Assembly (NCBI GenBank): GCA_030670545.1
Contig: DAOVBM010000001.1
Span: 17,932 to 81,931, forward strand
Source of the DNA: Candidatus Woesearchaeota archaeon
GTDB lineage: Archaea; Nanobdellota; Nanobdellia; Woesearchaeales; JAGLGH01
Direction of reading: 5' to 3'
Length of the DNA: 64,000 nt
Under the pieces are notes generated by a model. It worked only from the letters and a program-made list of their open reading frames with translations. It was not told where the DNA came from and did no database searches. How positions within the stretch are numbered: position 1 is the stretch's first letter; each line of letters opens with the position of its first letter. Shown here in pieces: positions 1 through 54,944 of this stretch. Made by a program: the position numbers and the translations under genes.

Positions 1-98
1 ACTTGGAGAGCAAAGCTCTCTAAGTTACTTGGAAAGCATAGCTTTCTAAGTTCTTAAGGAGTTTTACTCCTCAAGACTTAATGAGCTATGCTCATCAA
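1..98. repeat. Array of four tandem ~26-nt mini-hairpins. Each has a 6-7-bp stem and a 3-nt loop, and the stems differ between units by compensatory changes that keep them paired.
   Basis: The units are cttGGAGAGCaaaGCTCTCtaag, cttGGAAAGCataGCTTTCtaag, cttaAGGAGTtttACTCCTcaag and aATGAGCtatGCTCATcaag. The array sits immediately 3' of the stop of the giant gene. Confidence 0.7.
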
Positions 99-150
99 GT
101 TTTGAAGATGCTCGTGCTCCCTTATTATATGGCTTATTACATACTAAATT
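99..150. repeat. Partial copy of the MITE-like element R1, retaining its 3' half (gttttgaagatgctcgtgctcc ... ttattacatac).
   Basis: Matches 19994-20040 and 60566-60610. Confidence 0.5.
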
Positions 151-151
151 A

Positions 152-1327
152 TCAATACTTCTTCTTTTTCCAGATAAATAGTGCAAGAGCTGAGAATAGC
201 AATATAGCCTGAAGAAATGTAAACCCAAGTGGAACTATGAACACCGGAACTTCAACACGAGGAGGCCTTGGAATGCCTATTGGAATTGGGACCTCTCTTA
301 TCTCTTCTTCAACCTCTATAGGCTTTTCTTCTTCAATCTCTTCAGGCGGAATCTTCTTTTCCACTGGCGGCAACTCTTTTACAGGGATATATATAGGCTC
401 TCTTTCTTTAGGAACAATCGTATAAACCACATACAATGGGCCTCCACCACCTCTTGCAGCAACTGTAGATACACTGAATATTGTAGTTGCTGTATTGCTG
501 CTGCCTGTTGTGTCATTCGCAAACACGCTTATAATATAATCTCCAAGTTCAGTAAGATTATCAGGTCCAAAGATGAAATCAATGGATTGGTTTGTCAATT
601 GCTGCAATAGTGTGCCGTTTGGGTCTGTGACATTAGCGATAACTGAATCAAGGAAGTAGTCAGATGCATTGAAATCTATCCTGACACTTTCATTGCCAAA
701 AAGCAGTTCAGTATCATTTATTGATATGTTGATTGCTGGTGCTGTTGTGTCAGCGACATCAAATGAATCATTCTCTATATTGAACCTGCCTAATGTGTCG
801 TTTGCAAATACACTGATATTATAGATTCCTAATGATGTAAGGTTTTCCGGGCCAAGCTCTAATGTGACATTTGCATTTATTTGATTGAATAGTAAGGTTC
901 CATTGGGATAAATGATTGTGGAATTGGCAAAGTCAAGGGATGGGTCTGTTATAGTGATATTGATCAATACATATTCGTATCCAAATTCAGGAGCAGTATC
1001 ATTTATTGATATGTCCTTTGTCGGAGGAAGCGTATCATTCACATTGAAGTATGCTATTGATGTGTTTGTATTTCCTGATGTGTCATTCGCAAACACTGTT
1101 ATATTATATCTTCCTAACTCTGTGAGATTAGCTGGTACTAAGATTATATTCTGGCTTTGATCTGTGAACTGTCCCAAGAGTGTACCATTAGGATACGTGA
1201 CATTAGCAATTACTGAATCAATAAATTGATCAGATGCATTGAAATCAATGCTTACAGATTCAATGCCATATTCTGCTTCTGTGTCATTGACTGAGATATT
1301 TATGGTAGGAGAGATTGTATCATTCAC
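152..1327 (-). CDS. C-terminal continuation of the giant surface protein in another frame. It carries three more ~95-aa repeats, a Pro/Glu/Lys-rich stalk, a C-terminal TM helix (PLGFTFLQAILLFSALALFIW) and a KKKKY tail. It is either separated from the upstream ORF by a 7-nt frameshift or is a separately initiated small protein.
   Basis: Translation continues the repeat consensus exactly (YFNVNDTISPTINISVNDTEAEYGIESVSIDFNASDQF). Relative to neighbouring repeat copies, a 7-nt segment (atgctat/GCATATT) is missing at about 1325-1330. Confidence 0.7.
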   Translation of the reverse strand: MNDTISPTINISVNDTEAEYGIESVSIDFNASDQFIDSVIANVTYPNGTLLGQFTDQSQNIILVPANLTELGRYNITVFANDTSGNTNTSIAYFNVNDTLPPTKDISINDTAPEFGYEYVLINITITDPSLDFANSTIIYPNGTLLFNQINANVTLELGPENLTSLGIYNISVFANDTLGRFNIENDSFDVADTTAPAINISINDTELLFGNESVRIDFNASDYFLDSVIANVTDPNGTLLQQLTNQSIDFIFGPDNLTELGDYIISVFANDTTGSSNTATTIFSVSTVAARGGGGPLYVVYTIVPKEREPIYIPVKELPPVEKKIPPEEIEEEKPIEVEEEIREVPIPIGIPRPPRVEVPVFIVPLGFTFLQAILLFSALALFIWKKKKY

Positions 1328-4300
1328 ATTGAAGTTGAGGTGTTTGTATTTCCTGATGTGTCATTCGCAAACACTGTTATGTTGTATCTCCCAAGCGCTG
1401 TAAGATTGGCTGGCACTAAGATTATATCCTGGCTTTGATCTGTGAACTGCCCTAATAGTGTTCCATTTGGATATGTCACATTAGCAATAACTGAATCAAG
1501 ACCAACATTTGATACATTAAAGTCTATTTGTATAGACTCAACTCCATACTCCACGTCTGTGTCATTGAGTGATATATTGATAGTAGGCGCGATTGTATCA
1601 TTCACATTGAAGTATGCTGTTGAGGTGTTTATATTTCCTGATGTGTCATTCGCAAACACTGTTATGTTGTATCTTCCAATTGCTGTCAGGTTAGCTGGGA
1701 CTAATAGGAAATCAACAGATTGATTTGTCAACTGCTGCAGCAATGTTCCATTTGGATATGTTACATTAGCTATTACTGAATCCAGTAATCCATTAGATGC
1801 ATTGAAATCTATTTGTATAGACTCAACTCCATACTCCACATCTGTATCATTCACTGATATATTGATAATAGGCGCGATTGTATCATTTACATTGAAGTAT
1901 GATGTCGATGTGTTTGTGTTCCCTGCTGTATCATTCGCAAACACTGTTATGTTGTATCTTCCAATTGCTGTCAGGTTGGCAGGCACAAAGATAAAATCAA
2001 TTGACTGGTCGGTCAATTCCTGAAGCAAAGTGCCGTTAGGATATGTCACATTCGTTATAACTGAATCAAGGTTAGGATCTGATGCATTGAAATCTATGCT
2101 CACAGACTCAACACTATACTCTACATCTGTACCATTCACAGATATATTGATTGTCGGAGAATCTACATCCACCACTGTCCCTGTCACATAGGCATTGTCA
2201 ATCTGGCAGATTTCATTATTGCTGCTTGACAAGCACCTGAACCTTATCTTAAGATCATGATTATTGTCTGCATTGCTTGTGAGATTATAACTGTAAAGGG
2301 TATAATCTGTAATATCTTCGATACTAAGCACATTTATCCAGGCTGTGCCATTGTACCAGTCAGCTGCAATATATTCGCCTGCATCAAGCCTTTCAGTATT
2401 TGCATAGAAGCTGAAACTTATGTTAATATATCCCCATGTGCTGATATTTGTCTCAACTATGCTTTCTCCTACTGTGTTCTCTGCTTCAGCATTATATATG
2501 CCGGCAAAAGGGCTTGTACTTGCAATGAACCATGCAACTCCAGCTCCACTTGTTGTCCAGTTGTTTGTTGAGAGATTGCCTGATTCAAAATCCTCAAAGA
2601 ATGTGCCATTTCCTTCACTAAGCGCAGGGTCTCCAGGGCTGAAAGTATAATTCGCATAATCAGAAGATTTTATATTGAACCAAGGCCGCCATACTCCCAA
2701 ACAAGTGTAATTCGATAGGTTGTAGGTTCCGTCGCACTTGAAGAATATCTGATTCTCTGTGCTTACAGGCTTTTTCTCAATTACAAGACTATCGTAATTC
2801 AATCCAGATGGATCAATTATGGAGTGCGCAAGGCTTGCATTGTATCCCCCCATTATGGTGTCTGTCATGTTCGTGTTGTTGAATAATCCCCTTATCCAAT
2901 AATTGTCAATAGTCGGATCATACATAGCAGTCACCTGCATGTCATATTCTTCTGTGCCTGAGAAATTAAAATCATATGACTCATTTGAAGAATATACAAG
3001 ATGGCCTGTTGAGTTGTATATCATGAATGATGCATTAAGGAAATTTCCATCCCCATCTACAAGAGTGCCGTTTAATGTGTAATTTGCAAGAGGGATTATA
3101 TCATAAGTCCACTGCTCGCTGGTGTACCATGTGCTGTTTGTATCATTTGCATAGCTTCTCCATATATAGCTGCCTGGCTGGATGTTTGTGTAGTTGTAAT
3201 AGAACTCCTGACTCTCATTGCCTGTTGCTGAATAGTTCTGCAATGTTCCAGTGAAGTTATGCTCGAAATAGACAGTATCTGCAGTCAGGTTCCAGCTTAT
3301 ATTGAACTGGTAGCTATTGTCTGGTATGTAATATACTATTCCTGAAGGATATGTCCTGTTGTCATACCATTTAAACACAAAGACATCAAAACCTGATGCA
3401 GATATATTTGCATTTCCAAAAGTGTCATTCGCAAATACTGTTATATTGTATCTTCCGACTGCTGTAAGGTTAGCAGGAGCAAAGATGAAATCAACAGACT
3501 GGTTGGTCAATTCCTGAAGCAGAGTGCCGTTAGGATATGTCACATTTGCTATAACTGAATCAAGATCAAGGTCTGATGCATTAAAATCTATGCTCACAGA
3601 TTCCACTCCAGATTGAAGATAAGAATCATTTATAGATATGTTTATTTCAGGAGGCTCTGCCTCAATTGTGATTGTAAAGTTATTATCATCCCAGCCTGAA
3701 TTGCCAAGCGAATCATAAGCAAGACAGTTCCAGATATAGCTTCCGTCAGCTATTCCTGTTAAGGAGAATGTGCTGGAATTTGACAATCCTGATACTGTAT
3801 CAGTTTCATTTGCCGCAAAGCTGCCGCTGATATTATGATATAATGTTATGTTGGTAAGAGCAGCCATGTTCTCTGTTGCATTGCATATAAACTCTACTGA
3901 GCTGTTTAATATGGTAGTTGCATTTGGCGGAGAGGAAAGTATCACCCCAGGAGCAAGATTGTCGATTGATATTGTCCTGTTATCTGAGTAGCCAGTAATA
4001 TTGTTAGCGTCAGTGCATTCAATATGCCATAGGAAGGTCTCATTCTGCCTGTCAGTAAGATTGATGTAATTTGTTCCGTTTGTGACTACAGATGACTGGT
4101 TTGATACATTGAAAGTGGAGTTCAGGTACACGAGGCAGCTGTATATCTCATTGCTGAGGTCGCTGGCATTGAAGCTGAATGTTATATTGCCGTTATATGT
4201 GCCGTTTACTGGAGCTATCAACGTTATGTCAGGAGGTGTTGTATCTGAAGTATTGATTGTGTTTATGAAAACATTTGCACCCTCATAATACTCTTTTGAG

Positions 4301-7300
4301 CAGAGAATCTGAGGTGAGTACTGCCCAGTCTGGTTAAAGTTGATAACTACCTGATAAACTGAAACATTAGTTTCATCCATATCATAAGTTCCCATACCAG
4401 GTATGTCCACATCGCAGTTTGCTCCGGATATTGATATATTTGTATCTGTATCTGTGTAATTTGCAGTTATCAGTACAGAATCCCCCAGTTCAATAGTTGA
4501 GGTATTCTCCTCTCCTACCACCTTTGTCGGATGATTAATAACAGTAACAGTTCTGGATATAGTATCTAATCTCTGATAATTTTCCTTTGAGCAGTTGAAA
4601 GTATGCGTTTTAGCGCCAAGGATAGTCCAGTTGAAATTTTTTGAATAATTCCCATCTTCTACAGGCAGGTCAGGAAGGATAGATGAAGGGCTGCCTGATA
4701 TTGAGCAGTTCGCTCCAAGAATAGGATTGTCATCCTCATCTGTATAATATGCCCAGATTATGTAATTGTTGTTAGGCGCAGGCCCTGCATATATTGTTGC
4801 ATTGGCGCTTACGCTGAGGTTTGCAGGCTCCACATTTATCTCAACATCTGATGAGTTTACTGGAACTCCGTAGCTTATGCTGTCATACGGCGTGACTTCG
4901 CAGAGCCACTGATCTCCAATCGAGGTGTTTTGGTATGAGACTGTTGCGCCTGTAAATGAAGTAAGAGTATCATTTCTATACCATGCAATTGTGCTTTGGT
5001 CTGGGTCTCCTTCAGTATCATTATATGTGTAATTGCATGTCATGTTATTCAGAGTGCTGACATTTGCTCCGTCATAAGTCGGGCTTATTGTGACATTCGT
5101 GACATTCGGCGCTGTCTGTGTCCTTACATAGAATGTCACATCCTTCTCGTCTATATTATTTGATGTGTCATTGATCCACATTGTGATGTTGTTCCATGCA
5201 GATTCTATTGCGGTGAAATTCACGTAAAGGCTGCTGCAGTCGGATATTGATGTATTTGTTGCATTATTGTTAAGATTATACCAGCACTTGTCAGGATAAT
5301 CTTCTGTATATGTCCAGTTCAGTGTGAGGTTCAGGCTGTAATATGTTGAATTGTTTATAGGATATGTTATGTTCAGGACAGGGTCTATGTTATCCTGCAC
5401 AGTGATCTGGATTGCAGTGGAGTTGATGTTGTTGGATGTATCATTTACAGATATGTTCAGGTAATATATTACTGGAGTCAGTGTTGTTGCGTTTGTTATC
5501 AGGCCAGATGAAGAGTTTATTGCAAAATTATTTGTGTCATTTATAAAATATTTATCCACAAGATAGTTGTCGCTTGCATTCACGTCATAGCTGAAAGACT
5601 CGTTGTATTCAGTTACCTGGTTTTGCGGAGTCTGGTCCCATGTCGGAGCAGTTGTATCATTCACATTAAAGAAAGATGTCGAGGTATTTGTATTGCTGGA
5701 TGTGTCATTCGCAAGCACAGTTATGTTGTATCTGCCAAGCAAGGTTAAGTTGGCTGGAACCAGAATTATATCTTCGCTTTGGTTTGTGAACTGCCCCAAT
5801 AATGTGCCATTCGGATACGTGACATTGGCGGTTGTTGAGTCAAGGAATTGGTCAGATGCATTGAAATCTATGCTTACAGACTCTATTCCATACTCTACCT
5901 CTGTGTCATTGACAGAAATATTGATTGTCGGCGCTATTGTATCATTGACATTGAAGTATGATGTTGTTGTATTGCTAAAGCCTGCTGTGTCATTAGCAAA
6001 CACGGTGATGTTGTATCTTCCAAGCGCTGTCAGGTTTGCGGGTTCAAATTCAAAATCAATTGACTGGTTTGTAAGCTGCTGGAGCAGGGTGCCATTAGGG
6101 TAAGTAACATTAGCGATGACAGAATCCAGGCATGTGTCAGAGGCATTGAAATCGATGTTTACAGATTCTACCCCATACTCTACATCTGTGTCATTCACTG
6201 AGATGTTTATTGTCGGCGTTATTGTATCATTCACATAGAAGAATGATGCTGTTGTGTTCGTGTTGCCGGATGTGTCGTTCGCAAATACTGTGATGTTATA
6301 TCTTCCAAGCGCTGTTAGGTTGGCAGACTCAAATTCAAAGTCAACAGACTGGTTTGTAAGCTGCTGGAGCAGTGTGCCATTTGGATAAGTCACATTTGCG
6401 ATGACTGAATCAAGGAATTGGTCAGAAGCATTGAAATCTATGCTTACAGACTCAGCACAATATTCTATTTCTGTATTATTCACTGATATGTTTATTGTTG
6501 GCAACGTATTGTCTATTGTAAAATTAGTGCTGCTGTTAGAGCATAGGTCACCATCATCACAACCTTCAACATAAATCATCCAATCGCCATCAGGCACTGT
6601 ACTTGAATTAAATAGCTGATTGGTCAATGAAGTGCTTGTGTTTATTGTCTGGTTGAAACTATCATCTGAATTGAATAATGAGACATTATAAGTGACAGGA
6701 TCGCCATTAGGGTCTGAAAACGCTGACCATGTTATATTTATTATTCCACTTTCATGATCCCCTTGCGCAGGATTGGTTATCTCATTAGTTATTGGAGCTA
6801 CGTTGACTGACACGATATCTAATTGAGACAATTCAAACCCATTAAGGCTTTCATCAAACTGCTCTACAGTTTCGCCAGAAGCAACTTCCAGCCACAGATT
6901 GAAAGTGTAACTATTTCCGACTGTTAAGTTTTTACATACCATGTAGATAAAAGCATTGCCTATATCTAAATCAGAACTGAGGTACCTTTCTTTCTTGGAA
7001 TAGCAAAGTGATTCCGGAACATCTGATGAGTTTATGAAATAAATCGGTGTCTGGTTTCCTGATGCTGTCCCGAATGATGAGCTCATAGAGATAAAATATT
7101 GTGTCCCATTCTGTATTGTAACTGTCTTATTCACAAGATTATGCAGCCCTGCTGAATAATTTTGGGATGAAGTCAAGTTTGTCAAAGGATTTGAGACTTG
7201 AAAATTATCAATTAGATTAAGATTATTATCTTTCAGATCAAATTCAGCCAATGCAAAATCAACTGTTACTGTCCCTGCGCTTGTTTTAGACTGGATAGTA

Positions 7301-8900
7301 TGGTTGTGAGTCCCTACATCACCAGTTTCTATATAAACCCCTGATACTGAACCTATATCCGAGGGGCTGGAAAGATATCTTCTCCAGAAGGGGGAAATTT
7401 CATTGGTACCTAAATCTTCAAAGTAATAATCTACTGTTGCTGAAGATGCATTTCCCTGGACAGTCTGTTTGGTCATAAAATATGTTGGGGCTGCATATGA
7501 TTTTGTGATTGTCCAATTAAAAGCAGGAACAAAAGATGCAGAGGAATGATTATAACTATCATTTGTCAGTTGTATCCTCACTAACTCTCCCATTGTAGTC
7601 TCGAACTTCCCAAGAAGCATATCAATATCATTTACATCTATTGAGCCGTTGCCAGTTCTCTTAAATTCTATTGTAATATTATGTTCTCCTGAACTCACAT
7701 TAATAAGGAAAGGTTTTGTGCCAGTAGAGCCTTCATCGTCAATATCTTCAACTGTTCTCAATTTCTCCTCTAATTTCGCAATATTATCTACCTTAATCCT
7801 CACCCATACATCATTAGCTCCAAGGCCTGTTAGTTTCTTGATATTCATTGAAGAAAAGAAACTTAAATTTACACTAGGTCTTGATGTGTTGAACAGCTTA
7901 AGCACGCCAATCACATAATCTGAGCTTGCAAAAGAGAAATTTGTAGTATCAAAATCAACTCCAAAGATGGAAGTATTGCCTCTGACATAAAAGTATGTCT
8001 CTTCTGTATCATTGATATTATTTGATGTATCATTGGCAGTAAATGTCATATTATACCTGCCAAGCAGGAAAGGCGCTGTGAAGGAATTATTGTACTTGTC
8101 TCCTGCTGCATTGCTCAGTTCAACCAATTCACTTGTTCCGTTCGGATAAGTGATATTGGCGCTTACATTAGCCACTGCAAAAAAATCAGTGACATTAGCA
8201 GCTATCTCTATTATATCAGAAACATTGAAGTGTGAGTCTGCTGTTGGAATAAGGTCAAATACTGAAGGTCGCGTAGTATCATTCACATAAAAGAATGATG
8301 CTGTCGTGTTTGTGTTTCCAGATGTATCATTGGCAAACACGGTGATGTTATATCTTCCAAGCGCAGTGAGATTCGCAGACTCAAATACAAAGTCAATTGC
8401 CTGATCTGTCAACTGCTGCAACAAGATGCCATTAGGATAAGTTACATTGGCCATCACTAAATCAATACCTACATTTGATGCGTTAAAGTCTATTAACACA
8501 GACTCAATACCATACTCTACTTCTGTATCATTCACTGAGATATTTATTGTTGGCGGAACAGTATCATTCACATTGAAGTATGCTGTTGATGTATTCACAT
8601 TGTTGGATGTATCATTGGCAAATACTGTAATGTTATATCTTCCAAGAAGTGTAAGGTTTGCTGGAACAAGGATTATATCTTCGCTTTGATTTGTGAACTG
8701 CCCTAATAGTGTTCCGTTCGGATACGTGACATTTGCTATCACTGAATCAAGGAACTGGTCAGATGCATTGAAATCTATGCTTACAGATTCAATTCCATAC
8801 TCTGCATCTGTGTCATTTACTGATATGTTTATCAAAGGATATACTGTATCTGTTGAATTGACAATATCCAAAGTATCGCTTGCAGTTTGGTAATACTCTT
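400..8900 (-). repeat. Intragenic tandem array of ~285-bp (~95-aa) repeats inside the giant surface-protein gene. Several copies are more than 85% identical at the nucleotide level.
   Basis: Recurrent strings such as gtgtcattcgcaaacactgttatgttgtatcttcc and ctggctttgatctgtgaactgcc appear at 1065, 1340, 1625, 1925, 3425, 5705, 6000, 6290, 8330 and 8620. Confidence 0.85.
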
Positions 8901-11900
8901 TTGAGCACGAGACAAATGGAGTGAATTCGCCAGGCTGTGTGAACTGCACAATGACTTCGTAAGTGATTGCTCCTGTCTCGGTCATATCAAAAGTGCCATA
9001 TCCTGCCAGGCTGACATTACAAGCAGCTCCTGTGAGAAGGGCGCTTGTATTTGCATCAGTGTAATTTGCTGTGAAATTCACATGGCTGCCGTATCCTATA
9101 TCAGTTGCGTTCTGCCCCCCCTCAAGATTAGTTGGATGGTTCAATACAGTCACTGTCCTTATGAGCGTATTTTGAGTCTGGTAATTTGTCTTTGAGCATA
9201 TGAAAGTATGGGTCTTTGGCCCTGTGACTGACGACTGGTAATTATGTGTATAGTTGCCATCATTATCACCATCAGAAAGAGTGACATCCGGAGTGCCATC
9301 TGTAGAACAACTAGCACCTAGTATAGCATTATCATCCTCATCTGTGTAATATGCCCAGATAGTGTAATAGTTATTTGGCTCAGGCCCCACATATATTGTG
9401 GCATTATCGCTTACAGTTATATTTGTCCTTTCTGTGCCAATCTCAGCATATGATGAATTTATTGGTGATCCATAGATTATACCATCATAAGGCGTGACTT
9501 CGCAGATCCACTGCTCTGCAAGTGAAGTATTCTGGTACTGGACAGTTGCGCCAGTAAATGAAGTTAAGACATTATTTTTATACCATGCAATTGTGCTTTG
9601 GTCAGGATCACCCTGCGTATCATTGTACGTGTAATTGCAGTGCATGTCATTCAGCGTGCTTACATAGATGCTGTTATATTTGGGCGTGATTGTGACATTT
9701 GTGATATTCGGAGCTGTCTGTGCCATGGCATAGAATGTTACATTATCTTGATTCATATTATTTGATGTGTCATTGATCCACATTGTTATGTTATTCCATG
9801 CAGAATCTATCGCAGTGAAATTAGCGTAAAGGTCACTGCAGTCAGCTATTGTTGTATTTGTCGCATTATTATTCAGATTGTACCAGCACTTGTTAGGATA
9901 GTCTTCTGTGAATGTCCAGTTCAGTGTGAGATTGAGTTCATAATAAGTAGAGCCATTTACAGGGTATGTTATGTTGATTGTTGGAGCGAGTGTATCAACA
10001 CTAAAATTTCGCGTCTCGCTTGTGTTTGCATTAGTTGCATCATCCCAGCAAGTTACATTCCAGCTATGGCTGCCATCTGCGAATCCCTGAACATCATGCG
10101 AAACTGCACTCCCATTAGGGCTATAATAATCAGACATGTTTACTATGCCATCAATTGTCAGATTACATAATAAGATAGTATCTATATTATCAGTAGCTGT
10201 CCAATTAAAGTAAACTACTGTCTCATTTGTGGTATAATCATTGTCTGGAGAATTTAATTCTATTGAGGGTTTTGTTTTATCTACTGTAAAAGTTCGCTGG
10301 TTGCTCGCAGCTGTTTCTGCAGGGTCTATACATTCAACCTTCCATGTTTGATTTGTTCCCTCAGCAATTCCACTGACTTCAAAAGTAGTATTTATGCTTT
10401 CGTTTGTAGAACTATTTGTCTGGTTTAAAATATCGTTGATATATAAAGAACAATTTAGGTTATCATGGGCAGGGTCAACAACATAAAAAGTGAAGTTTAT
10501 ATCTCCATCTTTATCTGCATAATTATTTTCTGGCGAGACAAGGTACACCAATGGAGGCACTATAGTTATTGTTATGGGAGTTGAATTGACAGAATTCCCA
10601 TCATCATCTGTTGCCTGAACAGTTATGGTATAATCACCAATATCTAAGGCAGGAGAGATACTAAGATTAGTGGAAGAGCCATTAGTAACAGTTCCGTTCT
10701 GCCCATTTGCTGTATCATTGACGAAGATGGTATAATTTATATCAGGAGTTGTATCGTCTGTTAGTACAAAAGTAATTAGAGGGCTTGGGTCAGATATATT
10801 TAAACCAGATGAAGGGTAAGTTATCTGCGCAGTTGGAAGTCCTGCAGTGATTGTGAAATTCCTGGTTTCAGAAATATTTGAATTATCTTCTGTATCTGTG
10901 CAGTTTATGAACCATGAATGGTTGCCAATAGATAATCCTGGGACTGTGAATAATGTAGTGGTATCGCTGCTGGTAGATTCATTTGTCTGATTCAGGACAT
11001 CATCAATATAGATTGAACAATTGAGTGGCGCTGAGATATCTACAGCCTTAAATGTAAAATCAATATCTGTTGGACCTGTTGTATAATTATCACTTGGACC
11101 AAGCAGGGTTATTTGAGGCAGTTCATTATCGATAATTAATGAAGCGCTTGGGAATTTTACATAAGAGTATTCAGTATTTTCCCATTGGATGTATGCAAAT
11201 TTGGCAGCAGCACCAGTTATATTAACGCAAAACTGAACACCTACTCGCTCACCAGAGCTTAGATTAAGATCATCACTGTAAGGCACATTATCACCCCAGT
11301 TATTGAAATCAGCTGCAGCGCATATATTTGAGGTTGCAGTAGTTGTGTTGAATGGATTGTATTCTGTTCCATTATATTTTAATATTTTAGCAAAAAGAAA
11401 TGCATCTGGGTTAGATGCTGAGCAATCGCCAAAAATGGAGAAGTTCCAGGTTCCATTAACTATTGTTTGTGTTGTCCAGTTTGGGGCAATCCATTTTTCA
11501 GGAAAGCATACAACACCCGGAACACTCAGGTCAAGGGGGGCAGAAGTATAACCAGTTATCCCAACGCTTTCATTCTTCATTTGATGATAAGCAGGATATT
11601 GGGAATCAGAAGCATTAAAAAGATAGTAGGTACTTTCATTTACTTCACCAAAAGCAGGATCATCCGGAGTCAATTCAAATGTGTATTCTTGTCCTGGAAC
11701 TAATCCTGTCTTAAACAGATTCCATTCACCATAGCATTCCTGCTCACTAAAGTTCCATTCCCTGCATTTATACAATGTTGTTCCTTTTGCAATCACAGTG
11801 ACATTTGCTGTTGTGAAATTCATTGCAGTCGGGTCAATAGCATAAGCCTGGACATAACTGCCCAGCTCTTCATGTTCAGATATGTTCAATTCCTCCATTT

Positions 11901-12957
11901 TTATGAATTCTTCAACATCCGAGTCTGAGATATAATCTTCTATAGTGATATTTTTGATGATATGATTTACTGGCTTGATGATGACCTTATGCTTTCCTGC
12001 ATGGAGATTTACTGCAGTCCTGTTTTTCACTTTCGTTGCTTTAAATTGATTATCCTTGTCTGCCTGTCCCCCCTCTAAGCTTATGCTCTCTTCAATATTT
12101 CCTGATGTATCATAAAATTCAATATGCGCTTCTATATCATTACCTGCTGCATCTTTTATTGTAGCATTGAATGTTATATTCATGCCTGTGATGTTTAAAG
12201 CAGCAAACTCACTCAAATTAAAGATTACTGATCTATCCTCCTGAACTGCATCAGAATCAACTATAAAGGATAGATGAAGTTTAAGGATATGGACATACAG
12301 GCCTGCAACATCATCTTCCTGGATAAGCAGCAATTCTGAAATGGGTTTCATTAGCGTAGGAAGCAGGAATTTAATAGCAGCCTTATCACTGTAATATATT
12401 TCTGAATATATATCTGTATGATCTAGGCTGTAATCGACATAAAGCAGTCTTGCAGAAATGCTATTGTTCTTAGCTATTCCATATTTACTTTCAAAAATAT
12501 ATACGTCATTATCCCATTTATCATTGGAAGGCGCAAAGTCAATAAATTCACAGCATTTTGCTGAGCCATGGCAGAATGATGTTGTGATTTCATTATCAAA
12601 AGAATAAATCTCCCAGACAGAGCAGAGGTTGGAATAGTTAAGGCGGGGTATGACAATGCTGTCATTGATAGAAAATCCAATAACCCCTGCTCTTTCCAGA
12701 TCTGAGAGATTCGAAAGAATATGAAGATCTATTTGAAGTTCAGGATCAGTATTTTTATCAGAAAATGTGAAGCAAGCAAAGCATATAAGTATAATAATGC
12801 AGCATATAAGAAATAATAAATTCTTTAAATCAATCTTAGAATCCCTGAATGCTATAAGCTTATAAATCTTATAGCTATAATTATGTTTGCTGCATAATTT
12901 TAAATGCATTGTCATGGCCTGCCTATAATAAAGTTTTATCGCCTTAAACGTATACAT
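1324..12957 (-). CDS. Giant secreted/surface repeat protein, 3877 aa. It has an N-terminal hydrophobic anchor/signal, about 25 tandem ~95-aa beta-rich repeats (consensus ...TINISVNDTEVEYGIESVSIDFNASDQFLDSVIANVTYPNGTLLQQLTNQS...LGRYNITVFANDTSGNTNT...), and a ~440-aa module duplicated internally. N-x-S/T sequons are extremely dense, which fits a heavily N-glycosylated archaeal cell-surface or adhesin-like protein.
   Basis: Single uninterrupted ORF of 11.6 kb. The N-terminal residues 47-63 (LLFLICCIIILICFACF) are hydrophobic. The repeat periodicity is visible at both the protein and nucleotide level. Confidence 0.85.
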   Translation of the reverse strand: MYTFKAIKLYYRQAMTMHLKLCSKHNYSYKIYKLIAFRDSKIDLKNLLFLICCIIILICFACFTFSDKNTDPELQIDLHILSNLSDLERAGVIGFSINDSIVIPRLNYSNLCSVWEIYSFDNEITTSFCHGSAKCCEFIDFAPSNDKWDNDVYIFESKYGIAKNNSISARLLYVDYSLDHTDIYSEIYYSDKAAIKFLLPTLMKPISELLLIQEDDVAGLYVHILKLHLSFIVDSDAVQEDRSVIFNLSEFAALNITGMNITFNATIKDAAGNDIEAHIEFYDTSGNIEESISLEGGQADKDNQFKATKVKNRTAVNLHAGKHKVIIKPVNHIIKNITIEDYISDSDVEEFIKMEELNISEHEELGSYVQAYAIDPTAMNFTTANVTVIAKGTTLYKCREWNFSEQECYGEWNLFKTGLVPGQEYTFELTPDDPAFGEVNESTYYLFNASDSQYPAYHQMKNESVGITGYTSAPLDLSVPGVVCFPEKWIAPNWTTQTIVNGTWNFSIFGDCSASNPDAFLFAKILKYNGTEYNPFNTTTATSNICAAADFNNWGDNVPYSDDLNLSSGERVGVQFCVNITGAAAKFAYIQWENTEYSYVKFPSASLIIDNELPQITLLGPSDNYTTGPTDIDFTFKAVDISAPLNCSIYIDDVLNQTNESTSSDTTTLFTVPGLSIGNHSWFINCTDTEDNSNISETRNFTITAGLPTAQITYPSSGLNISDPSPLITFVLTDDTTPDINYTIFVNDTANGQNGTVTNGSSTNLSISPALDIGDYTITVQATDDDGNSVNSTPITITIVPPLVYLVSPENNYADKDGDINFTFYVVDPAHDNLNCSLYINDILNQTNSSTNESINTTFEVSGIAEGTNQTWKVECIDPAETAASNQRTFTVDKTKPSIELNSPDNDYTTNETVVYFNWTATDNIDTILLCNLTIDGIVNMSDYYSPNGSAVSHDVQGFADGSHSWNVTCWDDATNANTSETRNFSVDTLAPTINITYPVNGSTYYELNLTLNWTFTEDYPNKCWYNLNNNATNTTIADCSDLYANFTAIDSAWNNITMWINDTSNNMNQDNVTFYAMAQTAPNITNVTITPKYNSIYVSTLNDMHCNYTYNDTQGDPDQSTIAWYKNNVLTSFTGATVQYQNTSLAEQWICEVTPYDGIIYGSPINSSYAEIGTERTNITVSDNATIYVGPEPNNYYTIWAYYTDEDDNAILGASCSTDGTPDVTLSDGDNDGNYTHNYQSSVTGPKTHTFICSKTNYQTQNTLIRTVTVLNHPTNLEGGQNATDIGYGSHVNFTANYTDANTSALLTGAACNVSLAGYGTFDMTETGAITYEVIVQFTQPGEFTPFVSCSKEYYQTASDTLDIVNSTDTVYPLINISVNDTDAEYGIESVSIDFNASDQFLDSVIANVTYPNGTLLGQFTNQSEDIILVPANLTLLGRYNITVFANDTSNNVNTSTAYFNVNDTVPPTINISVNDTEVEYGIESVLIDFNASNVGIDLVMANVTYPNGILLQQLTDQAIDFVFESANLTALGRYNITVFANDTSGNTNTTASFFYVNDTTRPSVFDLIPTADSHFNVSDIIEIAANVTDFFAVANVSANITYPNGTSELVELSNAAGDKYNNSFTAPFLLGRYNMTFTANDTSNNINDTEETYFYVRGNTSIFGVDFDTTNFSFASSDYVIGVLKLFNTSRPSVNLSFFSSMNIKKLTGLGANDVWVRIKVDNIAKLEEKLRTVEDIDDEGSTGTKPFLINVSSGEHNITIEFKRTGNGSIDVNDIDMLLGKFETTMGELVRIQLTNDSYNHSSASFVPAFNWTITKSYAAPTYFMTKQTVQGNASSATVDYYFEDLGTNEISPFWRRYLSSPSDIGSVSGVYIETGDVGTHNHTIQSKTSAGTVTVDFALAEFDLKDNNLNLIDNFQVSNPLTNLTSSQNYSAGLHNLVNKTVTIQNGTQYFISMSSSFGTASGNQTPIYFINSSDVPESLCYSKKERYLSSDLDIGNAFIYMVCKNLTVGNSYTFNLWLEVASGETVEQFDESLNGFELSQLDIVSVNVAPITNEITNPAQGDHESGIINITWSAFSDPNGDPVTYNVSLFNSDDSFNQTINTSTSLTNQLFNSSTVPDGDWMIYVEGCDDGDLCSNSSTNFTIDNTLPTINISVNNTEIEYCAESVSIDFNASDQFLDSVIANVTYPNGTLLQQLTNQSVDFEFESANLTALGRYNITVFANDTSGNTNTTASFFYVNDTITPTINISVNDTDVEYGVESVNIDFNASDTCLDSVIANVTYPNGTLLQQLTNQSIDFEFEPANLTALGRYNITVFANDTAGFSNTTTSYFNVNDTIAPTINISVNDTEVEYGIESVSIDFNASDQFLDSTTANVTYPNGTLLGQFTNQSEDIILVPANLTLLGRYNITVLANDTSSNTNTSTSFFNVNDTTAPTWDQTPQNQVTEYNESFSYDVNASDNYLVDKYFINDTNNFAINSSSGLITNATTLTPVIYYLNISVNDTSNNINSTAIQITVQDNIDPVLNITYPINNSTYYSLNLTLNWTYTEDYPDKCWYNLNNNATNTSISDCSSLYVNFTAIESAWNNITMWINDTSNNIDEKDVTFYVRTQTAPNVTNVTISPTYDGANVSTLNNMTCNYTYNDTEGDPDQSTIAWYRNDTLTSFTGATVSYQNTSIGDQWLCEVTPYDSISYGVPVNSSDVEINVEPANLSVSANATIYAGPAPNNNYIIWAYYTDEDDNPILGANCSISGSPSSILPDLPVEDGNYSKNFNWTILGAKTHTFNCSKENYQRLDTISRTVTVINHPTKVVGEENTSTIELGDSVLITANYTDTDTNISISGANCDVDIPGMGTYDMDETNVSVYQVVINFNQTGQYSPQILCSKEYYEGANVFINTINTSDTTPPDITLIAPVNGTYNGNITFSFNASDLSNEIYSCLVYLNSTFNVSNQSSVVTNGTNYINLTDRQNETFLWHIECTDANNITGYSDNRTISIDNLAPGVILSSPPNATTILNSSVEFICNATENMAALTNITLYHNISGSFAANETDTVSGLSNSSTFSLTGIADGSYIWNCLAYDSLGNSGWDDNNFTITIEAEPPEINISINDSYLQSGVESVSIDFNASDLDLDSVIANVTYPNGTLLQELTNQSVDFIFAPANLTAVGRYNITVFANDTFGNANISASGFDVFVFKWYDNRTYPSGIVYYIPDNSYQFNISWNLTADTVYFEHNFTGTLQNYSATGNESQEFYYNYTNIQPGSYIWRSYANDTNSTWYTSEQWTYDIIPLANYTLNGTLVDGDGNFLNASFMIYNSTGHLVYSSNESYDFNFSGTEEYDMQVTAMYDPTIDNYWIRGLFNNTNMTDTIMGGYNASLAHSIIDPSGLNYDSLVIEKKPVSTENQIFFKCDGTYNLSNYTCLGVWRPWFNIKSSDYANYTFSPGDPALSEGNGTFFEDFESGNLSTNNWTTSGAGVAWFIASTSPFAGIYNAEAENTVGESIVETNISTWGYINISFSFYANTERLDAGEYIAADWYNGTAWINVLSIEDITDYTLYSYNLTSNADNNHDLKIRFRCLSSSNNEICQIDNAYVTGTVVDVDSPTINISVNGTDVEYSVESVSIDFNASDPNLDSVITNVTYPNGTLLQELTDQSIDFIFVPANLTAIGRYNITVFANDTAGNTNTSTSYFNVNDTIAPIINISVNDTDVEYGVESIQIDFNASNGLLDSVIANVTYPNGTLLQQLTNQSVDFLLVPANLTAIGRYNITVFANDTSGNINTSTAYFNVNDTIAPTINISLNDTDVEYGVESIQIDFNVSNVGLDSVIANVTYPNGTLLGQFTDQSQDIILVPANLTALGRYNITVFANDTSGNTNTSTSM

Positions 12958-13090
12958 TTAAACCAAAGAACAGCGTATATATAGCTTAGGTTAAATAATT
13001 AATTAGAAAAAGGAAGAATAGTTTATTGTATACTAGCCACAGGATTAAAAAGAGGATAGATATTCATTTGCAGGAGGTTATTCTTGTGAA

Positions 13091-20047: not shown

Positions 20048-21742
20048 TTACATCTCCTCTGGCGCTTCTATGCCAAGAAGAGCTAATCCATTCTTTAATA
20101 CCTGCCTTACAGAGTCTGCCAAAGCAAGCCTTGCTTTCATTACATCTTCTTCAGCTCTAAGGATTGGGCAGTTATGGTAAAACTCATTGAATTGCTGTGC
20201 AAGATTAAGCAGGTAGTGGCATATCATTGAAGGCTTGTAATGTTCAGCGCTGTCATTGATTAATCCAGGGAATTGCTTAAGCAGTATAACAAGCTTTTTT
20301 TCATAGTCTGAATTAAGCAGTGAATAATCAGCATCATAATCAATATCCTTTCCATACTTTCTGAATATGCTGCATATTCTTGCATGAGCATATTGTACAT
20401 AAGGCCCTGTCTCGCCTTCAAAAGATATAGACTCCTTAGGATTATAGAGGAAATCTTTTGCTGGTTCATATTTAAGGATATAAAACTTCAATGCTCCTAT
20501 TCCTATCTGAACTGCGCGTCTTTTGATTTCATCTTCAGGAAGGTCATGCCTTTTTTTGATCTCTGTTTCAGCGAGCTTTTCCATATCATCCATCAGGTCA
20601 TCAGCATTAACAACAGTGCCTTCTCTGGACTTCATCTTGCCTTCTGGAAGATTAATCATGCCATAGATTAGATGATAGCATTTCTTTGCCCATTTATGTC
20701 CAAGCAGCTTGAGTATAACAAAAAGCTGCTGAAAATGAAGATTCTGTTCTGATGCGACAACATATATGCTTCTGTCAACCCCAAACTCTTTTTCCTTAAG
20801 CTCAGCAAGATATATATCCTGTGTTATGTAAAGTGATGTGCCATCTGACTTGAGAAGCACTTTATTAGGAATTTTGAATTTTTCAAGATTAGCTATTACA
20901 GCTCCCTCATCTTCCTCAAAGATTCCTTGTTTCAGGCCTTTTGCGACTATATCCTTTCCTTTCTTGTATATCCTGGTTTCATAGTATATCTTATCAAAGA
21001 CACATCCCAGCCTCTTGTATGTAATATCATAGCCATCATATACCCACTTGCTCATCTTTTTCCATAGTTCTATTGTCTTTGGGTCACCTTCCTCAAAGAG
21101 CTTGTTCAGTTGCTTTGCTTTGTCTTCAAGCTCAGGATCATCTTTTGCCCTGCTGCCGAATTCAATATACCATTTGGCAACAAAATGATCGCTTTTAATG
21201 TCTGGCTCCTGATTATTGCCCCATAATCTATATGCAAGCATTGATTTTGCAACTCCCATCCCTTTATCATTCATAAGGCATGTCTTTATTACCTTATAGC
21301 CTGAAAATTCAAGAATATTAGAGAGCGCAATACCTAAAAGATTGTTTCGCACATGCCCTAGATGCTGCGCCTTGTTTGTGTTTGGAGAAGAATATTCAAT
21401 CATAATCTTTTCATCTTTGGATTTTTTGGAGCCGTACTTTTCTTTATGTTTCTGGATATCTTTAAGTGTTGTTTCTCTAAGCAAATTCTGATTTACAAAG
21501 AAATTAAGATAGGGGCCTGTTGGTTTTGCTTCAGAGAGATATTCCGTTGGCCTGAATTTGGCTGCAATATCTTTTGCTATATCATTAGGACTTTTCTTCA
21601 GCTGTTTTGATAATGCAAAGCATGGAAATGCATAGTCTCCCATCTTTGGATCAGGAGGTATCTCTAGGGGGATATCTTTGAGTTTTGTCTCTGTTTTAAG
21701 GAAGTTTATTGCATCCTGCCTGAATTTATCCATTCTTCTCAA
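20048..21742 (-). CDS. argS: Arginyl-tRNA synthetase.
   Basis: HIGH-type motif SSPNTNKAQHLGHVRNN, an MSK-like motif KMKSREGTVV, and an ArgRS-type C-terminus. Confidence 0.85.
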   Translation of the reverse strand: MRRMDKFRQDAINFLKTETKLKDIPLEIPPDPKMGDYAFPCFALSKQLKKSPNDIAKDIAAKFRPTEYLSEAKPTGPYLNFFVNQNLLRETTLKDIQKHKEKYGSKKSKDEKIMIEYSSPNTNKAQHLGHVRNNLLGIALSNILEFSGYKVIKTCLMNDKGMGVAKSMLAYRLWGNNQEPDIKSDHFVAKWYIEFGSRAKDDPELEDKAKQLNKLFEEGDPKTIELWKKMSKWVYDGYDITYKRLGCVFDKIYYETRIYKKGKDIVAKGLKQGIFEEDEGAVIANLEKFKIPNKVLLKSDGTSLYITQDIYLAELKEKEFGVDRSIYVVASEQNLHFQQLFVILKLLGHKWAKKCYHLIYGMINLPEGKMKSREGTVVNADDLMDDMEKLAETEIKKRHDLPEDEIKRRAVQIGIGALKFYILKYEPAKDFLYNPKESISFEGETGPYVQYAHARICSIFRKYGKDIDYDADYSLLNSDYEKKLVILLKQFPGLINDSAEHYKPSMICHYLLNLAQQFNEFYHNCPILRAEEDVMKARLALADSVRQVLKNGLALLGIEAPEEM

Positions 21743-21779: not shown

Positions 21780-23096
21780 TTATTCTTCCTTATTCAGCAG
21801 CCAGAACCATATAGGCCTGACCTTAATATCATAGCCTTGAGATTTAAGGTTATCAAAATCATCCTTTGTCAACAATAAACCTTGCCTAAGATCATACTTT
21901 TCCAGTGCGTCCTTAAGACCTTTTATTTCCCTTTCTTTTGTTTTCTCATCCTTTAATGTTTTTGTTACCTGGATAACTTGAGTTATTTTAGTTCCTTTCT
22001 TAATTATGAAATCGCATTCGCTTTTTGCTTCTATGTCCTTATGGTAATATATCTCACTTTCAACCCTTTTGAGTTCAATAAATACAAGATTTTCAAGAAT
22101 CCTCCCCAAATCTTCTGAAAACCTAAACCCAAGAGTGTTAATAAGTCCAGTATCCATAGAATATACTTTTGACTGAGTCGTTATCTGCTCTTTTAATGAA
22201 TACGAGAACATGTCGAGATAAAAGAATAAATAAGAAAGTTCTAAATCAGAGAGATAAGATTGTATTGTATTTATTGAAACCCCAAATGCCTTGCTTATTT
22301 TGTTTATTGAGAACAATTTTGCGCTGTTTGTTAAGAGGAATAATGCAAGCTCCTTAATCAGTTTTGAATTCCTTATGTTGAATCTCTGAACAATATCCCT
22401 AAACAGGACATTGTCAAAATATTCATATATTCTTTCAGAAGGGTTAGGCTCATCAAGGAATTCAGGTATTGCACCTAACTTAAGGTATTGGTTAAATAGC
22501 TTCTTTACTTTAGGCATTACATGCTCAATCTCATAATATTTTTTTCCAGCAATATCTATCTTATGATAAATTAGGTATTCATCAAAAGAGAATGGCAGCA
22601 CCTCTATAGTCGATATTCTTCCTGTAAGTAGTGTCCCTAATTCCTTTGACAATAATTTAGCATTTGAGCCAGTTATAATCAACTTGATATTCTCTTCTGA
22701 GTCATATTTTGTCCTTAAGAAACGTTCAAATCCATTTATATTCTGAATCTCATCAAGGAAAAAATATACCTGTTTGTCTGGATTTATATTCTCTCTATAT
22801 ACTTCCAGAATCTCTTCGAGCAGATCAAGGGAATAATGGTCAAAGAACTTATAATATTCCAAGTTCACATAGAGTATCTGCTCCTTTGGAATATTATGTT
22901 CACCAAGGAGTCCTATTATCTGCTTTAGCAGTACAGTTTTCCCAGCTCTTCTTGGACCTTTAATTACTAATATTGATTTGGAACGGATTAATTTTGAATC
23001 AAGATATTGTCTCCTTGGGACATAGTCTAATTTAATCTCCTTATGCCAATAATTTTGTTCTCTGAGTATTGCAAATATTGTATTTTGATCAAGCAT
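21780..23096 (-). CDS. AAA+ ATPase with a DUF4143 C-terminal domain (COG1373 family).
   Basis: Walker A motif GPRRAGKT and the characteristic family architecture. Confidence 0.7.
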   Translation of the reverse strand: MLDQNTIFAILREQNYWHKEIKLDYVPRRQYLDSKLIRSKSILVIKGPRRAGKTVLLKQIIGLLGEHNIPKEQILYVNLEYYKFFDHYSLDLLEEILEVYRENINPDKQVYFFLDEIQNINGFERFLRTKYDSEENIKLIITGSNAKLLSKELGTLLTGRISTIEVLPFSFDEYLIYHKIDIAGKKYYEIEHVMPKVKKLFNQYLKLGAIPEFLDEPNPSERIYEYFDNVLFRDIVQRFNIRNSKLIKELALFLLTNSAKLFSINKISKAFGVSINTIQSYLSDLELSYLFFYLDMFSYSLKEQITTQSKVYSMDTGLINTLGFRFSEDLGRILENLVFIELKRVESEIYYHKDIEAKSECDFIIKKGTKITQVIQVTKTLKDEKTKEREIKGLKDALEKYDLRQGLLLTKDDFDNLKSQGYDIKVRPIWFWLLNKEE

Positions 23097-25743: not shown

Positions 25744-26024
25744 ATTATATAAGGATTAAAGACTTGTTAGGAATTTTAAACCTTTCTTTTATTTGTTATG
25801 AATATAGGATAGTTTAAGAATCTTAGTATATCTTTTCCTATACTAGTCACAATAAACGTAACATTTATATACTAGTTATGTTTATGATATATTATGCCCA
25901 AGGGTGGCTTTGTTCAGATTCATGCTTATGAGAAGGTCCAAAGGATTTTATTCTGAATTTGTAACCTACCCCCACACAAGACAAAAACCCTAACTCTTGG
26001 GCCTTCTCTTTTTTCATCAATACA

Positions 26025-26783
26025 TTATTTGTTCCCAAACCTCTCAAAAGCTCTCAATATTTCAAGAGGCATAGCAAACACTACTGTATTGCTCTGGTCT
26101 GAGCTGATGTCATTTATGCTGTGTAGTGTCCTAAGATGAAGTGCTCCTGAGGACTTTGCAAGTGTATCAGCTGCTTTCGCAAGATTAGTTGATGCTGTGA
26201 CTTCTCCCTGGGCTTTTATTACCACTGCTCTTCTTTCCCTCTCAGCTTCTGCTTCTTTGCCCATCACTCTCTTCATCTCTCCTGGCAGCTCAATGTGCTT
26301 GAGGTCAACGCTGGTTACCTTTATGCCCCATGGATCTGTCGCTTTATCAACAATCTGTTGAATCCTGTTTGACAGCCTGTCCCTTTCTCCAAGAAGTTGG
26401 TCAAGAGTTACCTCTCCTACAACATCTCTCATTGTTGTCTGCGCAAGCTGCGAGACAGCATAGTTGAAATGCTCTACTTTAAGGATTGCGCTATCTGCGG
26501 AATCAACCTTATAATATAATACTGCATTCACATTTACGCTTACATTGTCTTTTGTTATTGCATCCTGCTCAGGCACATCAACAGCCTTTACTCTCATATC
26601 AACCCGCTGCCATGTTTGGATTACAGGAACAACAATCCGCAATCCAGGTTTCATTATGCCTGAATATTTTCCGAGTGTGAATCTTACCCCTCGCTCGTAT
26701 TCATTTACTATCTTCAGCCCGCTGGCGATAAATATTGCAATAACTGCAATCAGCCATACTAATTCCATATTATATCCCCCCAA
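26025..26783 (-). CDS. SPFH/band-7 (stomatin/prohibitin-like) membrane protein.
   Basis: N-terminal TM helix followed by the SPFH core (KIVNEYERGVRFTLGKY...). Confidence 0.85.
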   Translation of the reverse strand: MGGYNMELVWLIAVIAIFIASGLKIVNEYERGVRFTLGKYSGIMKPGLRIVVPVIQTWQRVDMRVKAVDVPEQDAITKDNVSVNVNAVLYYKVDSADSAILKVEHFNYAVSQLAQTTMRDVVGEVTLDQLLGERDRLSNRIQQIVDKATDPWGIKVTSVDLKHIELPGEMKRVMGKEAEAERERRAVVIKAQGEVTASTNLAKAADTLAKSSGALHLRTLHSINDISSDQSNTVVFAMPLEILRAFERFGNK

Positions 26784-26979
26784 TTATTGATATGGTACTT
26801 TCAGGAGAAGTCATTAATAAATGTTTTGGATTTTATTGTTTTACTTACTAACTGATGTCTATATAATTTTTTAAATACAATCAAACTCACTTTTATATGG
26901 AGCTTATACTGCATCTGCATATTTTACAAATATACGCTGTTTCTGTTCAATGCCATGCAATGCAAAAAGAGGTGAAAAC

Positions 26980-28452: not shown

Positions 28453-28597
28453 GGGTATTAGATGTAGCCTCTCCAAATCTTTCCTAATTCTTTTCTTTTC
28501 CTTTGCGAATGCTAATGGCCGTCGCTGGAACAATGGTGGAAGCAGGCAAAGAATTAGATTAGGATTGATTTGAATCCTAAGAAAATCTTGAATAAAA

Positions 28598-54128: not shown

Positions 54129-54944
54129 TCACTTTAACCTTGGTTTATTCTTATTCTCAACTTTCTTAATACTATCGGTTGGAGGCAGATTTTCAGGCAT
54201 AGTCCCACCTAACTCCTTTATTGTCTGCCTTATTTTTTTGCCAACCGCGAAATGAGTTTTATTAGCTTTATCTTTCCCTTTTATTTTTTCACGCCTTAAT
54301 TTTTCTTCGGTTTGTGTTGCTCTAAACAGATTTGCTGCAAGCTCAGTAGTTCCCATGTGGTCAAGTATTCTTTGGCTTTTCTTTAGCTCTTTTTTAGCTT
54401 GAATCTCCTTACTTCCTAATCCCCCATAAAGCCCTTTGTAGCCATGATTTTGAAAAATAGAATATTCTCTTGGGCTTACAACTCCTGCTTTTTTTGCAGA
54501 TTCTGCTAGTTTCTTATTATGGGTTCGCATCTCATTTCTTAAGAACAATCTTTTTTCTTCTTCTGATTTAAATTTTAAATACTTGTTCTGTTCTAGGATT
54601 TCCTGTTTTCTGGTTTGTACTGCAAAATAAGTCTGTCCAAGAGCTACAATCTCCTTGGAAGGATCTGCATTCTGGACAATCAAATAACATGCATAACGAG
54701 ACAAAGCATAATCCTCTATCTCCCTTTTTGCTCCAGAGCCTAACTCAACCTTTTTGGCTAGGTGGACAAAATGGTCTACAACATCTTGATTTGAGTTAAA
54801 GCAGGATTTTTGGGCCTTCTTAATAACATTCTCAAACTTTCGCCATTCAGCATAATCTAATGCTTTCTGTAAATCTCTTGCAGACCAGAAATAATTGCCA
54901 AACTCATTGACTTGCTTGATATTTTCAAAGATTAATTGATTCAT
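54129..54944 (-). CDS. DinD-like protein (DNA-damage-inducible protein D family; Bro-N-like N-terminus, SRYACYLIVQNADPSK).
   Basis: Recalled similarity to DinD N-terminal region. Confidence 0.5.
   Translation of the reverse strand: MNQLIFENIKQVNEFGNYFWSARDLQKALDYAEWRKFENVIKKAQKSCFNSNQDVVDHFVHLAKKVELGSGAKREIEDYALSRYACYLIVQNADPSKEIVALGQTYFAVQTRKQEILEQNKYLKFKSEEEKRLFLRNEMRTHNKKLAESAKKAGVVSPREYSIFQNHGYKGLYGGLGSKEIQAKKELKKSQRILDHMGTTELAANLFRATQTEEKLRREKIKGKDKANKTHFAVGKKIRQTIKELGGTMPENLPPTDSIKKVENKNKPRLK

Follow-up and report, generated by a model that had tools for sequence, protein, structure and literature searches.

A 7-nt gap between a giant immunoglobulin-like repeat protein of a DPANN archaeon and its membrane anchor: a probable recent truncating allele

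Why does the gene of a giant repetitive surface protein end in the middle of a repeat, when the same repeat is resumed in another reading frame that leads to a membrane anchor? The question is raised by positions 152 to 12,957 of a 64,000-nt stretch of DNA (hereafter the window) from a Candidatus Woesearchaeota archaeon (contig DAOVBM010000001.1, positions 17,932 to 81,931, of assembly GCA_030670545.1). An original prediction, made from the sequence alone, described a 3877-aa open reading frame (ORF) ending in NTSTSM* and a following ORF in another frame, and both are present in the sequence. The analysis presented here points to a recent truncating deletion as the probable cause of the split. 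The features on which the argument depends are as follows, in window coordinates.

12957..1324, minus strand: ORF1, 3877 aa, C-terminal end ...GNTNTSTSM*
1327..152, minus strand, in the -1 frame relative to ORF1: ORF2, 391 aa, GTG start
455..2154, minus strand: last array, six 95-aa immunoglobulin (Ig)-like units, the third of which (1584..1307) is 278 nt in length
1332..1336, minus strand: deletion site, AGCATAC (gene strand) being absent between 1334 and 1333
1324..1326, minus strand: premature TGA of ORF1, 8 nt (2.7 codons) past the deletion

One gene in two reading frames

ORF1 and ORF2 are two fragments of one 12.8-kb gene. ORF2 comprises three full repeat units, a stalk, a transmembrane (TM) anchor, and the residues KKKKY, and its C-terminal end is ...PLGFTFLQAILLFSALALFIWKKKKY (in longer form, ...VPLGFTFLQAILLFSALALFIWKKKKY). 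It was correctly predicted to carry the only C-terminal TM anchor, as the whole protein has two hydrophobic segments and the second of these lies at the C-terminus. Successive VFANDT motifs of the last array are 285, 285, 278, 285, and 285 nt apart, and it is the unit at the ORF boundary that is 7 nt short. When this junction unit was aligned to the neighbouring units and to an ortholog (L001, described below), a single 7-nt gap was found, CCTCAAC[AGCATAC]TTCAATG. The loss of 7 nt from the junction repeat had thus been recognised from the sequence, but it had been placed at 1325-1330, while the actual site is 1334/1333 (plus or minus 2 nt), 7 to 9 nt upstream of the stop codon. An AC microhomology on both sides of the gap leaves the breakpoint uncertain by 2 nt. 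As deleted in the window, the junction sequence is CACCTCAACTTCAATG. With AGCATAC reinserted, the reading frame is continuous, without a stop codon, over exactly 4270 aa, in line with the predicted size of about 4270 aa. The break is located inside the last beta-strand (NTSTAYFNVND) of the tenth 95-aa unit, which is the third unit of the last array.

Is the gene also split in related archaea? The original prediction had suggested a comparison with orthologous loci. A public protein collection already lists ORF2 as a protein of its own (P0001, 391 aa; NCBI, 84-kb contig). Its 90% cluster mate P0014 (1536 aa), from contig Ga0366838_1036112 (L001) of JGI metagenome 3300033144, runs through the junction uninterrupted (...GNTNTSTAYFNVNDTISPTINISVNDTEAEYGIES...) to the same anchor. 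The L001 DNA is 93.7% identical to window positions 1587-152 over 1452 columns, with the 7-nt gap as the only internal indel; the extreme 3' end differs, the L001 frame being three codons longer (...KKKKDYAK vs ...KKKKY). On contig JAYEPB010000107 (L005) of Nanoarchaeota MAG014, a metagenome-assembled genome (MAG), the repeats, the stalk, and the anchor lie in one 2403-aa open frame that runs off the contig edge. An ENA scaffold (L002, encoding P0017) has the repeats up to the stalk and the anchor in one frame, whose sole interruption is a 100-N scaffold gap. Thus, L001, L002, and L005 are all continuous at the junction and none of them has a separate anchor gene. Since these three loci are in a single frame there, the one-ORF state is ancestral and the split in the window is derived. 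The orthologs encode both parts in one ORF, and the window has a non-triplet indel, a stop codon 8 nt on, and a frame that can be restored, which is the pattern of a frameshifted allele.

The frame break of L002 was considered as a third frameshift and rejected, as it coincides with the 100-N gap at L002:9867-9966. Owing to this gap, P0017 begins in the middle of a domain (MDDTTPP...), and the gene caller did not report another open frame, 3368 aa or more in length, upstream of the gap in L002. MAG014 was the sole return of a genome scan for orthologs. A metagenome scan with degenerate patterns from the C-terminal alignment gave, among the matches listed, distant relatives only (50% identity or less) and missed L001. 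Many partial homologs sit on contigs of 1-2 kb. One of them, P0002 (MCK5712166.1), is a 459-aa fragment of the repeat protein on a 1380-nt contig that bears the NCBI label Hyphomicrobiaceae bacterium; this contig is probably mis-binned.

Could ORF2 be a gene in its own right? The ORF1 stop codon and the ORF2 start codon overlap as GTGA (1327-1324), a geometry known from translational coupling in bacteria and archaea, and ORF2 was called as a gene in the public collection. In such a two-gene arrangement, ORF2 would be made by termination-reinitiation and would serve as a separate anchor subunit for ORF1. However, the GTG encodes the Val of the FNVNDT repeat consensus and is found in most units, so that the overlap is a by-product of the consensus AAT GTG AAT GAT. 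ORF2 encodes neither a signal peptide nor an internal Met, and its GTG is not preceded by a Shine-Dalgarno-like sequence; a product without a signal peptide would leave its Ig domains in the cytoplasm. Moreover, the split lies inside a beta-strand of a domain, and no ortholog has the anchor as a separate gene. A two-gene arrangement is therefore hardly credible.

A programmed -1 shift within the 12-codon overlap before the TGA would be another way to obtain the full-length anchored protein. The open -1 frame begins 36 nt (12 codons) before the GTG at 1327, or 37 nt before the stop codon of ORF1, and a -1 shift has been proposed for split BAP genes (PMC4647330). However, there is no X XXY YYZ heptamer in GAC ACA TCA GGA AAT ACA AAC ACC TCA ACT TCA ATG TGA. 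The minimum free energy of the RNA 1375..1230 (146 nt) is -24.3 kcal/mol as compared with a shuffle mean of -25.6 kcal/mol (z = 0.33), and the frameshift is not conserved, L001, L002, and L005 being in one frame here. Programmed recoding is largely refuted, and the probability that I would still give it is close to nil. Read-through of the TGA was also considered and was rejected, since the ORF1 frame reaches a TAA seven codons later.

Age of the break and the recurrence of 7 nt

How old is the break? For the 393 codons that follow the break, the ratio of nonsynonymous to synonymous substitution rates (dN/dS) between the window and L001 is 0.119; for the 84 aligned codons that precede it, the ratio is 0.114, at a dS of about 0.22. 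The chance of an open 391-codon frame is less than 1e-13, given the off-frame stop rate of the gene (0.08-0.10 per codon). Since the detached part is under the same purifying selection and would hardly have stayed open unselected, the anchor segment has been in frame for nearly all of the divergence time. Judged from these comparisons, the break would be either very recent or not real.

L001, the closest of the orthologs, has an independent break of its own, at another site, and is split into a 678-aa ORF and a 1536-aa ORF. Compared with the window, L002, and L005, exactly 7 nt are absent from L001, ATT[GARCTKG]GTGATT (L001:2015-2035, corresponding to window 4478-4472). Global alignments of the window and L001 were made in two collinear blocks, of 2240 columns (84.5% identity) and 1452 columns (93.7%), and the two 7-nt gaps, one per genome, are the only internal indels in both blocks (3.7 kb); no in-frame indels were found. 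A comparison of the two deletion sites revealed no common motif, hairpin, or direct repeat. By a rough estimate, the chance that a second frameshifting indel is also 7 nt in length is a few percent. The recurrence may be due to chance (two events), to a lineage-specific mutational bias, or to a shared technical cause, and it is the only aspect of this locus that is not ordinary.

A technical cause deserves to be weighed with care. The gene may be intact in the organism, the gap having arisen from a library-preparation chimera (e.g., by template switching), from strain consensus or polishing, or from gap-closing by the assembler. ORF2 is perfectly intact with a normal dN/dS, the target is rich in repeats and comes from metagenomes containing several related strains, and the independently assembled L001 also has a 7-nt deletion, so that the presence of only two internal indels in 3.7 kb fits a systematic technical cause. 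On the other hand, de Bruijn graph assemblers output only k-mers that are found in reads, the break shows just 2 nt of homology, far under any k, and 7-nt deletions are not normal Illumina errors. The rest of the contig looks error-free: ORF1 is uninterrupted for 11.6 kb, the neighbouring genes are full length, and independent Logan contigs of SRR26080965 are 100.000% identical to window 25950-28489 (2540 nt) and encode an identical ArgRS (also 20048-21742). SRR26080965 very probably contains the source population. The original prediction had proposed an assembly collapse in near-identical repeats, but the repeats are diverged: the units share 52-83% DNA identity and exact repeats in the gene reach at most 47 nt, which leaves no path to a 7-nt collapse, and a collapse would drop whole 285-nt units. 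No independent assembly of the junction was obtained by exact look-ups of ORF1, ORF2, and P0001, and protein searches, in which ORF2 and a 400-aa segment with the junction restored were the queries, returned no Logan-derived junction fragment; a unitig with k = 31 would span only 295 nt at the junction. Altogether, an artefact is unlikely, although it has a substantial share of the probability.

Could the deletion be one state of a switch? Short indels put adhesin genes out of frame at contingency loci, such as the CTCTT repeats of Neisseria opa genes, and the 7-bp repeats upstream of the Haemophilus influenzae hmw genes are a precedent for a 7-nt unit. A slippage-based switch had also been proposed for the present locus. 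However, AGCATAC is single in the intact copies (CTCAAC-AGCATAC-TTCAAT), where the 7-mer occurs once and is flanked solely by the 2-nt AC direct repeat. Unlike the contingency loci, therefore, the gene has no tandem 7-nt tract to vary, and the change is not readily reversed by slippage. A different kind of reversible variation, on/off or anchored/shed, would have the deletion as one state of a recurrent mutational hotspot in giant adhesin genes of DPANN archaea, and gene conversion from adjacent units would restore the frame, making surface display heterogeneous within the population. Surface adhesins are classic targets of phase variation, and the two orthologs have two independent 7-nt frameshifting deletions with zero in-frame indels. 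Both broken genes are otherwise intact, which indicates that both events are recent, and the neighbouring units could provide donor templates with up to 82% identity and near-identical flanks of 20-40 nt. Against this, the two sites have no simple-sequence tract, common motif, or inverted repeat, there are two events only, no invertase, diversity-generating retroelement, or other diversification machinery was seen beside the gene, and repair by gene conversion is pure inference. Reversible variation is thus quite improbable here. A still lower probability is given to the more specific idea that a lineage-specific mechanism produces recurrent 7-bp deletions, restorable by gene conversion and acting without a simple-sequence tract, to switch cells between anchored and anchorless states.

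What remains is an ordinary mutation. I consider it probable that the window carries a recent truncating deletion allele of a giant Ig-like adhesin of a DPANN archaeon. That the deletion is real, whether fixed or polymorphic, has at least the same degree of probability, and I infer that it is present in the DNA and not in the assembly alone. A genuine inactivating or truncating mutation was among the three options named in the original prediction and is the best supported of them, as the orthologs are in a single frame and selection on the detached part is unchanged.

In this truncating deletion, 7 bp flanked by a 2-bp AC microhomology would have been lost, removing AGCATAC from the last beta-strand of the unit; the pattern is compatible with replication slippage or end-joining. 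The frame would then have shifted and met a stop codon 8 nt later, giving an exported 3877-aa glycoprotein without the three repeats, the stalk, and the anchor. Before glycosylation, the mass would be ~425 kDa for the truncated protein and ~470 kDa for the full-length one. The last Ig domain of the truncated protein would lack half of its final strand. Depending on whether the N-terminal hydrophobic segment is cleaved, the truncated protein would be shed or would be tethered solely by that segment. A shed, anchorless form of the adhesin is possible; equally, the segment could be an uncleaved signal anchor. The remaining 391 codons would be a very recent and still intact remnant, either untranslated or at least non-exportable. 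Even if ORF2 were reinitiated at the GTGA, its product would not be exported because it has no signal peptide.

Several points weigh against a truncating mutation. An intact ORF2 is predicted equally by an artefact and by a very recent mutation, and the second deletion of the same length in L001 hints at a shared technical or mechanistic cause. The protein search returned ORF2 but not the 3877-aa product, so that there is no independent ORF1 for comparison. Finally, the 7-nt gap is, as far as this work goes, known from the assembly alone.

The restored protein and its genomic surroundings

What kind of protein would the restored gene encode? The repeat units were located with a hidden Markov model (HMM) derived from the 95-aa (285-nt) repeat. 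The remaining features of the gene and its 3' flank are as follows.

12760..12828, minus strand: N-terminal hydrophobic segment LKNLLFLICCIIILICFACFTFS, aa 44-66
8266..8832, minus strand: first block of 95-aa units, two strong copies by HMM, with a degenerate third copy at 8217..7981
5644..6498, minus strand: second block of 95-aa units, three copies by HMM
3370..3645, minus strand: lone copy of the 95-aa unit by HMM
245..466, minus strand: Pro/Glu/Ile-rich stalk TVAARGGGGPLYVVY...PRPPRVEVP, linking the membrane anchor to the last repeat
155..244, minus strand: C-terminal anchor, with the TM helix VFIVPLGFTFLQAILLFSALALFIW (244..170) and the basic tail KKKKY (169..155)
1..125, no strand assigned: cluster of palindromic hairpins with 23-26-nt units, just past the stop codon and off the window edge

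Giant, anchored surface proteins with Ig repeats are known from DPANN archaea (PMC10266531), and the gene product belongs to this class. The intact layout, with a putative export signal, a head, an Ig-like ectodomain, a stalk, a TM helix, and a cytoplasmic KKKKY tail, is that of a cell-anchored adhesin, and a role as an adhesin is suggested on the same grounds. In the restored protein, only aa ~44-66 and aa 4241-4265 form hydrophobic segments. The N-terminal segment LKNLLFLICCIIILICFACFTFS could be a signal peptide or a signal anchor; it is 20 residues long, and its hydrophobicity is kept in a further locus of Nanoarchaeota MAG014 (L003), which encodes the N-terminal 1829 aa of the protein. 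A head of about 600 aa near the N-terminus of ORF1 has no family match. The rest of ORF1 contains several kinds of Ig-like domain, and nine of the 12 strong 95-aa units, which the HMM places in four blocks, lie in it, the ninth being cut short.

Pfam searches of the protein found solely bacterial Ig-like families (Big_3_3, Big_13, and Big_12). An AlphaFold2 (AF2) model of the repeat unit is all-beta, an eight-strand beta-sandwich with a predicted local distance difference test score (pLDDT) of 94, and its Foldseek neighbours are generic Ig-like domains (complement MG, PKD, SiiE BIg, and CARDB). The restored protein is rich in N-glycosylation sequons, with 323 N-X-S/T motifs, and N, T, and S account for 31.6% of the residues. 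The modules are not arranged alike in the window and in L001: the large RIKVD...EEKLRTV module with its flanking repeats (window ~8839-5925) directly precedes the terminal array in L001. This difference between window 152-12957 and L001:869-6642 seems to indicate modular rearrangement or duplication in the gene family.

Is the C-terminal tail processed? Like archaeosortase signals (PGF-CTERM and Heimdall-CTERM), it is tripartite, with a VPLGF motif, a hydrophobic helix, and a basic cluster. However, its match to Heimdall-CTERM (NF045529) is sub-threshold at 18.3 bits (E = 0.0023; curated cut-off, 24), and a search for PGF-CTERM gave no match even at E <= 10. A Pfam scan found no archaeosortase gene among the 40 other ORFs of the window. 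From the tail sequence, the protein would be at most a candidate archaeosortase substrate.

At the 5' end of the gene, translation may start elsewhere than at the annotated ATG (12957). The alignment with L003 begins no earlier than the conserved TMH(L/I)K motif, and M17 (12909), which is conserved, is therefore a candidate start. A TATA-like sequence, CTATATATA, is located at about 12975-12985, upstream of ORF1. At the 3' end, the hairpin units include ACTTGGAGAGCAAAGCTCTCTAAGTT and CTTGATGAGCATAGCTCATTAAG, and the same units are found downstream of the ortholog at L001:6765-7135; none were found elsewhere in the window. The cluster may serve as a terminator or represent an intergenic repeat element.

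The neighbours of the gene are ordinary archaeal housekeeping genes, for ArgRS, IMPDH, a NOG1-type GTPase, Trm1, and a CNNM/CorC transporter. All relatives of the ArgRS that bear names are from Woesearchaeota or Nanoarchaeota MAGs, the best non-self match being 70% identical. Farther away, there is an apparent operon (31728-41094, minus strand) of nine tightly packed ORFs (116-428 aa), most of which overlap; no Pfam family (apart from one weak DUF6638 match) and no PADLOC defence-system match were found for them. A closely spaced pair of paralogous genes on the minus strand (42296-43270 and 44010-44960) encodes Fic/DOC domains, and near this pair there are genes for a BRO-N protein (54129-54944), a PD-(D/E)XK nuclease (55802-56617), and an AAA_14/DUF4143 ATPase (21780-23096). 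This part of the window may be a mobile or defence-related neighbourhood.

Comparison with known giant and truncated adhesins

Are there precedents for a giant adhesin gene split in this way? The BAP/BLP genes of Acinetobacter, which encode giant Ig-repeat adhesins, are commonly split by frameshifts into two or more ORFs, and the question of real mutation versus sequencing error has likewise been discussed for them (PMC4647330). Acinetobacter BAP and BLP1/BLP2 and the BAP pseudogene of Salmonella LT2 resemble the present gene in their multi-kb tandem Ig-like modules of about 80-110 aa (PMC4647330). In both cases, a small frameshift gives an N-terminal and a C-terminal ORF in some strains, the gene being intact in others. 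In contrast to BAP/BLP, the present host is an archaeon, the lesion is 7 nt in length, and there is so far one broken allele per lineage. The anchoring also differs, with a C-terminal TM helix here and type I secretion and outer-membrane retention in BAP/BLP.

Loss of the anchor alone has a precedent in Listeria monocytogenes. Premature-stop alleles of inlA, which are natural strain polymorphisms, encode a truncated internalin A that lacks the LPXTG anchor and is secreted. As in the window, a small mutation near the 3' end removes just the anchoring module. On the other hand, internalin A is about five times smaller and is anchored by sortase via LPXTG, whereas a TM helix is used here, and the change from an anchored to a released protein is demonstrated in Listeria but would be an extrapolation here.

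Among DPANN archaea, giant membrane-anchored surface proteins are known from nanohaloarchaea as the SPEARE-type proteins SVXNc_0300 and BNXNv_0298 (PMC10266531). The SPEARE-type gene is the largest of a small DPANN genome and encodes a Sec-type N-terminal signal, tens of Ig-like domains of about 100 aa, and a TM segment, an organisation similar to that found here; both proteins have a presumed role in host-cell attachment. However, a cytoplasmic VirB4/TraG-like ATPase follows the TM segment in the SPEARE type, whereas the present protein stops 5 residues past the TM helix and has no Pfam ATPase. It is also less than half the size, has no sequence-family match to the SPEARE-type proteins, and belongs to a Woesearchaeota-like lineage rather than to Nanohaloarchaeota. 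The absence of this ATPase domain is the reason for rejecting a SPEARE-type identity.

What does the split mean, then? The event itself is ordinary, as giant adhesin genes split by frameshifts are well known from bacteria, and only the unexplained recurrence of 7 nt in L001 would raise its importance. For the annotation of MAGs it is a caution, since the 391-aa "gene" is stored publicly as a separate protein. If the deletion is real, it would be a natural allele of the protein that most likely attaches an episymbiotic DPANN archaeon to its host. With the anchor lost and nearly the whole ectodomain kept, this allele would provide a handle on strain-level variation in host attachment.

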